A DNA stretch of 64,000 nucleotides from an uncultured Clostridia bacterium (GCA_944390965.1 CALXRW010000001.1:19273-83272); one strand, 5' to 3'; numbered from the stretch's first letter, positions 10,367-53,640 are shown. The notes: generated from the sequence alone by a model not told the origin. Translations and numbers: made by a program.

Positions 10367-10403
10367 TCTTCGAAGAGCGGGCGATTAAAATCGCCCCTAC
10401 ATT
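10367..10403. repeat. REP-like unit (GC hairpin followed by CCTACA)
   Basis: cttcgaagagcgggcgattaaaatcgcccctacattt. Near-identical units lie at 24847, 35455, 43762 and 51136. Confidence 0.7.
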
Positions 10404-10501
10404 TCTTCATTTTTTATTTTTTACATGTTATTTTTGTTCTTTTTCATCTTATATGATTGATTTCTTTTTGTCAAGCCCTTTTCAAATCACCTTTGTTTCT
10501 T

Positions 10502-11981
10502 TTAAAGTATTATACAAATAAGTCCTCCACTTCCTTCATTTACAATTCTTTCTAGTGTTTCTTGCAATTTTTCTTGAGCATCTTCTGGCATTCTAGCCAA
10601 TTTATTTTGCAATCCTTCATTTACTAATTCGTGTAGATTTTTCCCAAATATATTAGATTCCCATATTTTTTTAGGATCATTTTCAAATTCTGCTAATAAA
10701 TAATTTACTAATTCTTCTGATTGTTTTTCACTTCCTACAATTGGAGATACTTCTGTCTCAATATCTGCCCTAATCATGTGTATAGATGGTGCTTTTGCTT
10801 TTAACTTTACACCAAAGCGAGAACCTTGTTTTACCATTTCTGGCTCATCTAAAATTAACTCATCCATCGTTGGTGTCACTATTCCATAACCAGTTTGTTT
10901 TACTTCTTGTATAGCATAGGCTATCTTATCATATTCTCTTTTTGTATCTGCTAATGATGTAATAGTAGCAAATAAATCTGCTTCATTTTTTAAATCCATT
11001 CCTGAAATTTCGGTTAATACCTGATAAAATAAATTCTCTTTTACTGTAATTGTTGTATTTACATTTCCATTTCCTAAATTAATATTTTCCACAGACGTTT
11101 TTTCAATAATTTCTGTTTTTTGAATCTTACTAACACCATCATTAATTTGTTTTACTACTTTTACCCCTGCAAATGCTTCTTTTATTTCTTTATATAGTTC
11201 TGCCTTTAGTGGATGTTCTAAACTTAGGCCTTCAATCCATCTAGGATAATTGATATTGATCCTTTCAATTGGAAATTCATATAATATTTTCCCAAAAATC
11301 GTGTTGATATCGTCAATATTAAGATTTGCACAATCTGTTGGTAAAACAGGAACACCATATTTTACTTCTAATTTTGCTGCTAAGGTTCTTGTATAATCTG
11401 AATTAGGACTATCTGTATTTAGTACAATTACAAAAGGTTTATTTAATGCTTTTAATTCTGTTGCAACTCTTTCTTCTGCTTCAATATAATCTTCTCTTGG
11501 AATTTCTGTAATACTTCCATCTGTTGTAACTAATATACCTATTGTAGAATGTTCTTCAATTACTTTTTTCGTCCCCATTTCTGCAGCAATCTCAAAAGGC
11601 ATTGGCTCATCTGACCATGGTGTTTTCACCATTCTAGGTGTTTCATCTTCCATATATCCGAAGCGCATTATCTACCAAATATCCAACACAATCAACTAAT
11701 CTCGTTTTTAATTTAATATTTTCTCCAATTGTAATTTCGACTGCTTCATTTGGTACAAATTTTGGTTCTGTTGTCATAATTGTTCTTCCCGCTGCACTTT
11801 GTGGAAGTTCGTCTCTAGCTCTTTCTTTTTTATAAGTATTTTCAATATTAGGGATTACTAACAAATCCATGAATCTCTTAATAAAAGTAGATTTCCCCGT
11901 TCTTACTGGTCCAACCACTCCTACATATATATCACCATCTGTTCTTTTGCTGATATCTTGATATATTTCTAAATTTTCCAT
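10502..11981 (-). CDS. spoIVA: Stage IV sporulation protein A (spore-coat morphogenetic ATPase). The frame is interrupted at an in-frame CGG and needs a +1 shift.
   Basis: Walker A GVVGPVRTGKSTFIKRFM and DELPQSAAGRTIMTTEPKFVP, with a C-terminal ...NEGSGGLICIIL. Two ORFs (11643-11981 and 10502-11668) join if the C of the CGG at 11658-11660 (minus strand) is skipped, giving ...VDNALGYMEDETPRMV. Confidence 0.85.
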
Positions 11982-12077
11982 AAAAAAAATTACCTCCTAT
12001 AAAATGTTTGTCTATTAAACTTTAATACATGTATATTAAGGTAATTTTTTTTTATTACAAATTTTTATTCTATTTTA

Positions 12078-12962
12078 TCATTCACCTTTTTCTCTTGGAT
12101 TTAATGCCTTCTCAAATTCTCCATTTAAATATTCCCATTGTTCTAAGTATTCTTCTACTCCATAATTTACAATGTTTTGTCTCAAACTATTTAGTCTGTT
12201 TGAATATTCATTTGGATGAGAAATAATTCTTTTTCTATCTTTCATTCTTTCTGCCATAAGTGCTTCTACTGCAGAGCGATATCTTAAATCTCCCTTTTCA
12301 TATACTAATTTGGGTTCAAATTCTTGCTCGCCCCTTTGATATATTCTTATTTTATCGGCTAAGTTTCTCCTTTCTATTTCTTTTACAGTTTCAATCATTC
12401 TTTTATATGCCTCATTATGTGGTTTAGTTGATACTACCCTTGTATTGATTCCTGATTCTAAAAATCTAAAATATCTTTCTGAAGATGACATCAAACTTTC
12501 TAAACTATCCACAGCTAATAAATTAACTTCAATATTATATCCATTTGCTTTCAGATTTTCAAATATGCTTAAGTATCCTTCTGTATCTCTAAATGTACCT
12601 TGTGTCAAAATATTATTTTTTCTTTTTATCGCAATTGCATTCAAGGTTTTCAAAGCTGGCTGAACAAATTGTTGTAAATATTGAAAGGAATTAGCTTCAT
12701 CATGTTTTGTAATTTCATCATAAAATGGATGATGTAAACCTACTACATCTGGATCAAATTCAACAATTTCTTGACTTTTACCCATTATAAAATCAATCAT
12801 ACATTTTTTAGCAAGTCCCGTTTTCCCTGCACCTGGTTGTGCTGCTACAAATATAGCTGTTGGCTTTCCCTTTGCGCAACTTACTGTGTCTAATAATTGC
12901 CTTACTGCAGCTCTTTCTGCTTCATAATATTGTTCCTGTGTAAATTTATATTTTTCTACCAT
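12078..12962 (-). CDS. Zeta-toxin family P-loop kinase (copy 1)
   Basis: Walker A AQPGAGKTGLAKK and D..VGLHHP, the second zeta motif. The length is 294 aa. Confidence 0.7.
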   Translation of the reverse strand: MVEKYKFTQEQYYEAERAAVRQLLDTVSCAKGKPTAIFVAAQPGAGKTGLAKKCMIDFIMGKSQEIVEFDPDVVGLHHPFYDEITKHDEANSFQYLQQFVQPALKTLNAIAIKRKNNILTQGTFRDTEGYLSIFENLKANGYNIEVNLLAVDSLESLMSSSERYFRFLESGINTRVVSTKPHNEAYKRMIETVKEIERRNLADKIRIYQRGEQEFEPKLVYEKGDLRYRSAVEALMAERMKDRKRIISHPNEYSNRLNSLRQNIVNYGVEEYLEQWEYLNGEFEKALNPREKGE

Positions 12963-12963
12963 T

Positions 12964-13149
12964 TTAAACTTCTCCCTCTTTTTTGTATTCTTCTATTACC
13001 TTTTTTATTACCTCTTTATTTCCTTTATAAATCTCGTTTTTTTCATTAATTCTCTCTTTTAGTTTTTCTATACTTTTCCCTGCCTTTGTGTCTTTTACAG
13101 CCTGTCTGTTTACAATTTCTAAAGCTAGTTCTATTTCTTTATCTTCCAT
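12964..13149 (-). CDS. Small charged helical protein, candidate epsilon-like antitoxin (copy 1)
   Basis: 61 aa (MEDKEIELALEIVNRQ...). AAGGAGG lies 8 nt upstream and its stop abuts the zeta start. A similar protein precedes zeta copy 2. Confidence 0.45.
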   Translation of the reverse strand: MEDKEIELALEIVNRQAVKDTKAGKSIEKLKERINEKNEIYKGNKEVIKKVIEEYKKEGEV

Positions 13150-13255
13150 TTTATTTCCTCCTTTTTCTTTTTTCTTTAAATGATTTTTTCGGAAACCTGA
13201 CAATTAAAACTGCCTCTATATTTTTCATAAATTACATTAGACTATCATATTTTTA

Positions 13256-52948: not shown

Positions 52949-53034
52949 AGTAACACCTCCTATAATATTTATACACTTTTATTATACTACATTTTTATGT
53001 AAATTGCAATTTTACGTGCCATTGTATAGGTTTT

Positions 53035-53092
53035 TCCGGGTCGGCGAGGGTGTCGACACCCTACACATATCTTTAATGAATCGTGAATAATT
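53035..53092. repeat. REP-like unit plus a half repeat arm
   Basis: gggtcggcgagggtgtcgacaccctacacat followed by ttaatgaatcgtgaataat. Confidence 0.6.
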
Positions 53093-53093
53093 A

Positions 53094-53196
53094 CTGACAG
53101 AGGTGATAGAGATTTTGACAGCATTTCAATAATTTTATAAAAATCTGAAATTATATTCGTTTGAAATGCTGTTAAAATCTCCATCACCTCTGTCAG
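53094..53196. repeat. 34-bp near-perfect inverted repeat (long hairpin) 3' of thioredoxin
   Basis: ctgacagaggtgatagagattttgacagcatttcaa ... ttgaaatgctgttaaaatctccatcacctctgtcag, with 2 mismatches and a 31-nt AT-rich loop. Confidence 0.8.
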
Positions 53197-53212
53197 TCCC
53201 ATTAGGCACTTA

Positions 53213-53512
53213 TTATTTTAACATATCTAATATTTCTTGTTTATCTCTTAATCCTACCAAAGTATTTACTATCTGTCCATTTTTAATGGCAATTAATGTT
53301 GGTACACTCATAATATTATATTGAGCTGCTAAATTGCTATCTTCATCAATATCAATTTTACATATTTTAATATTTGTATTTTCTTGTTCGATTTCTTCCA
53401 TAATTGGTGCTAACATTTTGCATGGTCCACACCATGTTGCATAAAAATCTACAATAACTGGTTTATCAGATTGTAGAACTTCTTTTTCAAAATTTTGACT
53501 TGTTATTTTCAT
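53213..53512 (-). CDS. trxA: Thioredoxin
   Basis: WCGPCK active site. The length is 99 aa. Confidence 0.9.
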   Translation of the reverse strand: MKITSQNFEKEVLQSDKPVIVDFYATWCGPCKMLAPIMEEIEQENTNIKICKIDIDEDSNLAAQYNIMSVPTLIAIKNGQIVNTLVGLRDKQEILDMLK

Positions 53513-53603
53513 ATAACTTCCACCTTTCTTTTTCGTATAGTTTTTGTTTTTCTTTTTATTCTATTCATATGTAGTTTATCATATTCTTTTTCTCTTTGCA
53601 ATT

Positions 53604-53640
53604 GTTTTTTCTTTCGGGCTCGTCAAGACGAGCCCGTACA
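53604..53640. repeat. REP-like unit variant
   Basis: tttcgggctcgtcaagacgagcccgtacaaattc has the same hairpin as gggttcgtcaagacgaaccc, with CGTACA in place of CCTACA. Confidence 0.55.

Follow-up and report, generated by a model that had tools for sequence, protein, structure and literature searches.

Short GC-rich palindromes, each followed by (C)CTACA, are scattered through a 64-kb stretch of DNA from an uncultured Clostridia bacterium (GCA_944390965.1, CALXRW010000001.1:19273-83272; 'the window', with coordinates counted from its first nucleotide). The locus raises the question of what these repeats are, and of whether an enzyme exists that could have dispersed them. Very probably they are repetitive extragenic palindromes (REPs), arranged in part in clusters resembling bacterial interspersed mosaic elements (BIMEs), and represent the non-autonomous, DNA side of a partnership with REP-associated tyrosine transposases (RAYTs, also termed TnpA-REP).

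The repeats form a family well beyond chance expectation. The commonest, type-1 unit, GGGCGATTAAAATCGCCCCTACA, has six copies at up to three mismatches in the window (starting at 10379, 21132, 24860, 35468, 43777 and 51138, all on the + strand), where none is expected from 100 shuffles. An anchored scan, which required a GC-rich stem (6 bp or longer) with its end 0–2 nt before CTAC, gave 12 matches, representing 11 distinct elements, against 0–1 for each of ten control tetranucleotides of the same composition. When degenerate copies are included, the window holds 17 units of a GC-rich hairpin plus (C)CTACA. An earlier sequence-only reading had put their number at 12 or more, which this count and the near-empty controls bear out. 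That reading had picked out the right objects, at positions 2–15 nt away from the units, because most of its coordinates fall where the linker ahead of the unit, TTCTTCGAAG, begins. A seventh type-1 copy, which it placed near 28165, is present at 28177–28199, but as a degenerate sequence (GGGCGATGAAAATCGCCCTATCA) that lacks CTAC. Its inverted copies are also real, and number three (at 21250, 43948 and 51337).

In the other 14 of the 17 units, the hairpin-CTACA order reads on the + strand, that is, 5'-TGTAGG-hairpin on the − strand, which is the gene strand. The foot of the hairpin is conserved as 5'-(T)GTAGG(G) on one strand and CC(C)TACA on the other, and GTAG/CTAC stands directly at the stem foot in 15 of 17 units, the exceptions (28177 and 53616) being decayed copies. 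Stems are 7–9 bp long with a GC content of 62–94%, and loops are of 4–6 nt. Folded as single-stranded DNA, the units have z-scores of −2.6 to −5.9 relative to shuffled sequences, apart from that at 53038 (−1.45). Three types can be distinguished: type 1, GGGCGATTAAAATCGCCC, with seven copies, two of them decayed; type 2, GGG-NNNG-TCAAGA-CNNN-CCC, with six copies; and type 3, GGGTCGCCGTGGGTGGCGACACCC and relatives, with four. The type-2 copies of the window share a constant TCAAGA loop on four different complementary stems (TTCG/CGAA, ATGG/CCAT, TCGG/CCGA and CTCG/CGAG). The same pattern recurs in metagenomes, in which the NNN triplets of GGG-NNN-GTCAAGAC-NNN-CCCCTAC are complementary in ~128 of ~145 cases and at least 13 different paired triplets occur. 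In strain contig L004, the equivalent of 21083–21107 has its loop flipped from TCAAGA to TCTTGA on an unchanged stem; this is a signature of intra-hairpin template switching, and indicates that the hairpin forms in vivo. Other Clostridia loci contain 70 further distinct hairpins ending in CTAC, compared with 1–6 for control tags.

A hairpin with a GTAG foot had suggested the REP/RAYT architecture to the sequence-only reading, which saw no transposase gene in the window; the search of the window agrees with it on the latter point, and related genomes support the former. One genome per species (596 Gb in total) was scanned for the exact type-1 22-mer, GGGCGATTAAAATCGCCCCTAC, and at least 108 matching stretches were found; among the matches listed, the sources are mostly gut Clostridia metagenome-assembled genomes (MAGs) of 25–31% GC from rabbit, goat, rumen, chicken, pig and human. 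Two of the 8-kb blocks, both from related MAGs, contain a Y1 transposase open reading frame (ORF) of 149–150 aa (L016:1582-2031 and L109:1324-1773), bracketed, at a distance of no more than tens of bases, by GTAGGGGCGATTTTAATCGCCC on its upstream side and GGGCGATTAAAATCGCCCCTAC on its downstream side. These form an inverted pair, and the bracketing unit is exactly the type-1 unit of the window. The protein passes Pfam PF01797 (Y1_Tnp) at 29.8 bits against a cut-off of 23, and its best NCBIfam model is REP_Tyr_transpos, 'REP-associated tyrosine transposase' (NF047646), at 64 bits, compared with 21.7 bits for the IS200 model. Its sole relative in the PDB is 4ER8, the TnpA-REP of Escherichia coli, with ~25–30% identity over the aligned core (HIHIL against HMHCI, IWQKSFYEHIIRN against IWQPRFWEHAIRN, and YIKYN against YIYIN). 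Conserved in this alignment are the HUH motif, the catalytic Y...N and the GTAG-reading segment IWQ..F.EH.IRN; in the E. coli enzyme, GTAG is recognized by W94, Q95, E100, H101 and R104 (PMC6006769).

This pairing is not limited to two loci. There are 1562 homologues of the protein at E<1e-5, some of which have been named 'REP element-mobilizing transposase RayT' by JGI. In every locus inspected for the homologues P0003 and P0097, comprising eight further loci on metagenome contigs (L125–L144), the gene is bracketed by type-1 units. A second RAYT clade, with 35–38% identity, is bracketed instead by pairs of the type-2 unit GTAGGGGAGGGTCTTGACCCTCCC (L247 and L272, from a type-2 scan of metagenomes), and type 2 can therefore be assigned as the REP of that clade. 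A further homologue, on the 28% GC metagenome contig L211 (~16–493), has a type-2 REP match (133–156) inside its coding region; the protein alignment continues through the match, which resembles the in-frame REP insertions of one TnpA-REP subclass (PMC6006769). On plasmids, only distant RAYT relatives occur (at most 32% identity), and a search of IMG/VR phages gave only two exact matches.

Some copies of the transposase gene have the appearance of an insertion sequence (IS). An identical P0003 protein is encoded on four pig-gut contigs (L125, L126, L128 and L133) in ~750-bp units with four different outside flanks; these units are bounded by ~60-bp inverted ends (GTTAATGTTCAGACCAAAATTAAAAAAAGTAGAGTTTAT plus REP), which is IS-like for a RAYT. 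Shorter pairs without a RAYT, whose outer ends are like those of the P0003 units, are found in L055, L059 and L068. Features of this kind, together with the match to Pfam Y1_Tnp, could be taken to mean that the repeats are remnants of classical IS200/IS605 elements (TnpA plus TnpB), similar to miniature inverted-repeat transposable elements (palindrome-associated transposable elements, PATEs), rather than REPs of a domesticated RAYT. This is most improbable: no tnpB accompanies the transposase gene; IS200/IS605 elements have left and right ends that are asymmetric, whereas those seen here are inverted repeats with a GTAG foot; the RAYT model outscores the IS200 model (64 against 21.7 bits); TnpA-REP is the only match in the PDB; and the P0097 copies occupy one fixed chromosomal site. 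That the RAYT–REP pair itself still travels as a compact autonomous element of ~750 bp, and is not a purely vertical, domesticated system, is a separate and tentative suggestion, which we regard as somewhat unlikely. It is based on the four flanks of identical P0003 and on the presence of the exact 22-nt hairpin and tag in more than 30 gut Clostridia species and in distant lineages.

The distant lineages include Methylococcaceae (L014, L041, L042, L047, L066, L072 and L100), among them the isolate Methylobacter luteus, in all of which the type-1 22-nt REP is exact. It is also exact in L062 and in high-GC MAGs (L015, L028, L030 and L102), and the further hosts include a 55–62% GC MAG labelled Clostridia and one labelled Actinomycetota. 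Outside the AT-rich Clostridia, the 22-mer usually occurs as doublets resembling REPINs (paired, inverted REPs), such as GTAGGGGCGAATTCATTCGCCCAGGGCGATTAAAATCGCCCCTAC in the methanotrophs, or in 'double-foot' forms. No RAYT was found within the 8-kb blocks of the Methylococcaceae, L062 and high-GC matches. By our own estimate for sequence of uniform composition, ~0.07 chance matches to a 22-mer are expected in 596 Gb. The presence of the 22-mer across phyla may be due to horizontal spread of the RAYT–REP pair, or else to lineages having converged strongly on a single hairpin.

How the units of the window would have been dispersed can be proposed from the biochemistry of E. coli TnpA-REP, which acts on single-stranded DNA only, requires a REP with a 5' GTAG, and cleaves between C and T, as in GGCC|TACA (PMC3333891). 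The window units end in CCCCTACA, the CCCC-TACA form of this site, with the trailing A conserved. By comparison with the E. coli enzyme, the strand carrying the GTAG hairpin would be exposed as single-stranded DNA during replication and bound, at the hairpin and GTAG, by a monomeric HUH/Tyr enzyme. This would cut at C|T, here at CCCC|TACA or in the linkers, and rejoin the strands. Such strand transfer could lead to dispersal, tandem duplication or homogenization of units, which would then have come to rest between co-directional genes, in spacers that are transcribed, and in clusters that include AT-rich heptad linkers. The strand bias, 14:3 in the window, fits an enzyme that acts on a single replication strand; across loci, the strand with CTAC coincides with the G-poor strand in a ratio of 76:24.

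Several observations weigh against this interpretation. The 64-bit score of the RAYT lies below the curated NF047646 cut-off of 80. No RAYT gene was found in the window, its 10-kb flanks or four other 8-kb blocks of the same-species MAG (~116 kb in all). The strand bias is confounded with gene orientation (59:14), and could reflect selection at the RNA level and not single-strand transposition. The arrays of the window are direct repeats, whereas classical BIMEs and REPINs alternate in orientation. Finally, among ten or more strains at ~99% identity, no gain or loss of an individual REP was seen; only whole cassettes differ. Four common RAYT clusters were checked for shared samples and cluster members, and none could be tied to the genome of the window.

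The family extends beyond the window: further units are present on same-species MAG contigs (L029, L061 and L090), and on L148 within 10 kb beyond the window. The units are thus neither unique to the window nor absent elsewhere in the genome, either of which the sequence-only reading would have counted against itself. The density is approximately one unit per 4–6 kb. The same reading proposed comparison with strains that lack individual copies. Strains do differ, by loss or replacement of whole cassettes, by heptad copy number and by point changes, but not by loss of individual copies. Every strain examined carries the solo copies at 24860, 28177 and 35468, the first of these in a set of ten or more strains. 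Because these copies are fixed, recent mobility or turnover in the species of the window looks low. An apparent insertion of a 265-bp REP cluster in L149 proved to be a scaffold gap with duplication and was rejected as a polymorphism. In the next relative (L159), the orthologous ftsH and femX spacers are short and lack REPs, and no REP-like unit was found in 13 kb, so the family was gained or expanded after that split.

The position of the solo units relative to genes bears on two further explanations. Four solo type-1 units, all on the − strand, lie in spacers between co-directional genes. The first (10379–10401), which reads 5'-TGTAGGGGCGATTTTAATCGCCC on the − strand and continues into the linker GCTCTTCGAAGAAATTAC, is 101 nt past the spoIVA stop and 46 nt ahead of the next start codon. 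The second (24860–24882), also with a linker, is separated by 43 nt from the stop of the upstream DUF1189 gene and by 49 nt from the start of ftsH. In the degenerate third unit (28177–28199), decay has turned GTAG into GATAG, and TTTTCA forms the loop; the PBP1A stop is 9 nt upstream of it and the femX start 46 nt downstream. The fourth (35468–35490), with two stem mismatches, is 83 nt past the stop of a TPR gene and 48 nt before the uppP start. The distance to the upstream stop therefore varies from 9 to 101 nt. That to the next start codon stays within 46–49 nt, a constancy accounted for by the unit's own ~27-nt linker plus the ribosome-binding region. Two of the arrays described below also lie directly upstream of ribosome-binding sites. 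One solo type-1 subfamily has conserved flanks, of ~27 nt upstream (GATAGTGTAAAGTAATCTATGAAAAAT) and ~27 nt downstream (GCACTTCGAAGAAATTACTAAAAAAG), and this flanked unit precedes unrelated genes at 42–49 nt in several other species.

A fixed distance to the start codon alongside a variable distance to the stop would also be expected if the units were host-selected RNA stem-loops, intercistronic or 5'-proximal, that stabilize or modulate the downstream cistron, their repetition reflecting function. The placement of the flanked unit ahead of unrelated genes points the same way, as does the occurrence of a start codon 20–55 nt downstream of 23 of 118 copies in the sense orientation and of 2 of 118 in the antisense, and the 22-mer is kept exactly while its flanks diverge. 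However, in co-directional spacers across species, type-1 copies are more often nearer the upstream stop than the next start (27:15; medians 59.5 and 86.5 nt, respectively), and the same hairpin brackets transposase genes and occurs in inverted doublets and in contexts that do not look transcribed. There is no match to an Rfam family, and the element is missing from the orthologous ftsH and femX spacers of the next relative. Stem-loops of this kind are therefore an unlikely origin for the family, and a role as RNA elements would be at best secondary and exapted. One solo subfamily may have been co-opted as a module that is kept at a fixed distance ahead of ribosome-binding sites, and it is plausible that REPs, as sense-strand RNA hairpins, secondarily affect mRNA processing or stability.

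The other explanation is that the units are ordinary Rho-independent terminators, which look alike since GC-rich stems stand out in an AT-rich genome. The sequence-only reading had placed most copies right after stop codons and considered that they may also terminate transcription. The first part holds only in part: the four solo units lie 9–101 nt past a stop and 46–49 nt ahead of a start codon, and two arrays directly precede ribosome-binding sites. Across species, a sense-strand stop lies within 300 nt upstream of 77 of 118 copies. At 24860, a terminator-like structure was called on the + strand, where the hairpin is followed by CTACATTTTT. The second part does not hold for the gene strand, on which the sequence after the hairpin is GYTCTTCGAAG without a T-run; a T-run occurs on the opposite strand only. 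Moreover, an exact 22-mer with its CTACA tag in more than 30 species and three phyla is not expected of unrelated terminators, and a genuine terminator hairpin (43700–43727) adjoins one of the arrays yet looks different. The terminator explanation can hardly be correct for this family.

Two other roles for the solo units were considered and rejected. A 17-aa leader peptide, MKKCRGDFNRPFFEEIT, can be read across the solo type-1 unit, but the A-run before GTAG varies from five to seven As between copies, so that the reading frame is lost. A promoter within the unit was suggested by a TATAAT-like box before the 28177 copy; this box is the end of the PBP1A gene, and a promoter scan found nothing convincing.

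The remaining units, considered here as REPs, lie mostly in direct arrays of two or three units with a period of 47–51 bp (21083–21205, 43728–43851 and 51089–51160). On the − strand, a type-1 unit takes the form TGTAGGGGCGATTTTAATCGCCC-GYTCTTCGAAGAAATTRCTTAAAA, of ~47 nt, and the next unit may abut it directly. The first array, on the − strand, consists of a type-2 REP, TGTAGGGGTTCGTCTTGACGAACCC (21083–21107), 25 nt upstream of the start of a pilin-like gene (19792–21057); a type-1 REP (21132–21154) with CTACG in place of CTACA and a second GTAG in its linker (a 'double foot'); and a type-3 REP, TGTAGGGTGTCGCCACCCACGGCGACCC (21178–21205). Facing this array over a 44-nt AT-rich heptad block is an inverted type-2 REP, TGTAGGGGTCGGTCTTGACCGACCC on the + strand (21250–21274). 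The heptad blocks that flank this inverted REP (21209–21336) are (RRTGAAT)n at 21209–21245 and (ATTCAYY)n at 21294–21336. The second array, also on the − strand, contains a type-2 REP with the stem ATGG/CCAT (43728–43752), which adjoins the terminator hairpin of a DUF4364 gene, a type-1 REP (43777–43799) and a degenerate type-3-like REP, TGTAGGGGGTGGCGCCCAGGTCGAC (43827–43851); an inverted type-3 REP, TGTAGGGGTCGCCGCCCTCGGCGGCCC, lies at 43948–43974 on the + strand. The third, again on the − strand, begins with a type-2 REP (51089–51113) identical to the 21083 copy and, like it, 25 nt upstream of the start of a pilin-like gene (the paralogue 49693–51063), followed by a type-1 REP (51138–51160). 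A truncated inverted type-2 REP, GGTAGGGGTCGGTCTTGACC, which has lost its 3' arm, is at 51337–51356 on the + strand.

Two units on the − strand stand apart from these arrays. One is a type-3 REP, TGTAGGGTGTCGACACCCTCGCCGACCC (53038–53065), next to which on the + strand is a heptad block. The other, a type-2 variant, TGTACGGGCTCGTCTTGACGAGCCC (53616–53640), has its tag mutated to GTAC (CGTACA) and lies 27 nt past the stop of a 140-aa gene and ~100 nt before the thioredoxin start. Further heptad blocks are at 43855–43880, 43986–44016, 51165–51186, 51243–51276, 51298–51333 and 53070–53095.

The arrays are parts of composites with a common order: array, AT-rich (RRTGAAT) heptad block, inverted REP and complementary heptad block. 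The composites are ~80% identical to one another over ~160 bp, and a fourth is located just beyond the window (L148). Neither inverted doublets of the REPIN kind nor the alternating arrays of BIMEs occur in the window, in which two or three direct units are accompanied by one inverted partner 44–180 nt away. Tight inverted doublets of the type-1 REP (GTAG-hairpin, GTTCTTCGAAGCAC, hairpin-CTAC) do exist in other Clostridia MAGs. The period of ~47–51 bp also brought to mind a CRISPR-like array, or one like the Staphylococcus aureus repeat (STAR); this was rejected, as the 'spacers' are themselves palindromes, belonging to a small number of recurring types, and there is neither a cas gene nor a leader.

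The AT-rich (RRTGAAT)n heptads and their complement always adjoin REP clusters, and strains differ by one or two copies of the heptad. The association is also seen in Clostridia MAGs L009, L023 and L087 and in the 55% GC genome L102. By analogy with the IHF site of E. coli BIME-1, the heptad repeats may be a candidate linker for the binding of a host factor.

Two of the arrays belong to strain-variable cassettes (19688–21483 and 49559–51558), each comprising a pilin-like gene, its REP array and heptad blocks. In L002 and L005, ~408 bp of different sequence takes the place of the first. L119 lacks the second and has a clean empty site without a REP, and in L115 and L120 this second cassette carries a shorter pilin-like allele of 352 aa. 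The two pilin-like paralogues are 45% identical to each other, with a prepilin-like N terminus (GITL(V/I)AL..) and no other Pfam domain. They were considered as candidates for the transposase and rejected, given this prepilin-type N terminus and the lack of a Pfam transposase domain. In the second array, the DUF4364 ORF (43077–43805, + strand) continues for ~44 codons beyond the end of the Pfam domain, through the terminator-like hairpin at 43700–43727 and two REP units; its C-terminal tail is therefore encoded by repeat DNA.

The genomic background is that of a spore-forming gut Clostridia MAG, and the proteins encoded in the window include SpoIVA, FtsH, PBP1A, FemX and UppP. The window has ~29% GC overall (26–36% along its length), and its + strand has negative GC skew; the − strand carries most genes. 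No tRNA genes and no Rfam matches were found in the 64 kb. Many gut-metagenome contigs in the ENA carry identical proteins, at ~99% nucleotide identity to the window. A same-species or sister MAG is uncultured Clostridia bacterium BRZ_GA__bin106 (CALXQB01), of which locus L052 reproduces the ftsH region. The next relative, L159, has ~50% protein identity and keeps the gene order PBP1A ... FemX-Alr-DUF1189-FtsH. Two other repeats were noted in the window: a (TG)n microsatellite at 21420–21450, which varies in length and sequence among strains, and a long, near-perfect inverted repeat at 53096–53205 with arms of ~35 nt (CTGACAGAGGTGATAGAGATTTTGACAGCATTTCA ... complement). The latter is unrelated to the REP family, and has a REP and its heptad block on one side and the thioredoxin gene on the other.

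To our knowledge, work on REP/RAYT systems has been confined almost entirely to Proteobacteria. Among low-GC Gram-positive bacteria, the STAR elements of S. aureus, and BOX and RUP, bear a likeness to the present repeats as short GC-rich intergenic motifs every ~40–50 bp; we know of no GTAG-tagged hairpin or associated Y1 transposase in STAR, nor of any sequence similarity between it and these units. The repeats also resemble the E. coli REP/BIME elements with TnpA-REP (4ER8; Ton-Hoang 2012, PMC3333891). Both have an imperfect palindrome, rich in GC, with GTAG at its 5' foot and a complement ending in CC|TACA, several hairpin subtypes in one genome, and clusters with specific linkers. In both, the transposase gene is bracketed by inverted REPs (here in related genomes), and the HUH, Tyr/Asn and W-Q...E-H...R residues are kept. 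Unlike E. coli, the host is an AT-rich (29% GC), spore-forming member of the Clostridia, the hairpins are shorter and near-perfect with no obvious bulge, the arrays are direct, and the linkers hold the palindrome TTCTTCGAAGAA (TTCGAA) and AT-rich heptads.

The type-1 tight inverted doublets of other Clostridia MAGs resemble REPINs (Bertels and Rainey 2011; Bertels et al. 2017, PMC5581495), of which the window has no tight example. Group 1 RAYTs, 'also found in the Clostridia', are reported to be the most IS-like group and to show signs of horizontal transfer; the abundance of their 16-mers is low, at ~12 occurrences (PMC5581495), in contrast to the density of about one unit per 4–6 kb here. 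This was the one mention of Clostridia in the literature searched, in which no paper contained the present REP sequences; Clostridia are not treated by Di Nocera 2013 or RepRanger 2025. In architecture, partner enzyme and probable cleavage site, the family matches REP/BIME-RAYT systems, in a host group in which such repeats have hardly been described.

For these gut Clostridia MAGs, the REP family accounts for assembly breaks and odd GC-rich islands, and offers a handle for strain typing. How RAYTs select their hairpins and spread them could also be tested here, in an AT-rich, Gram-positive setting. Whether RAYTs are domesticated genes or remain mobile is a question to which both the IS-like RAYT units and the occurrence of an identical hairpin in distant phyla are relevant; if the pair does travel as an autonomous element, it would be a living version of the proposed REPIN ancestor.

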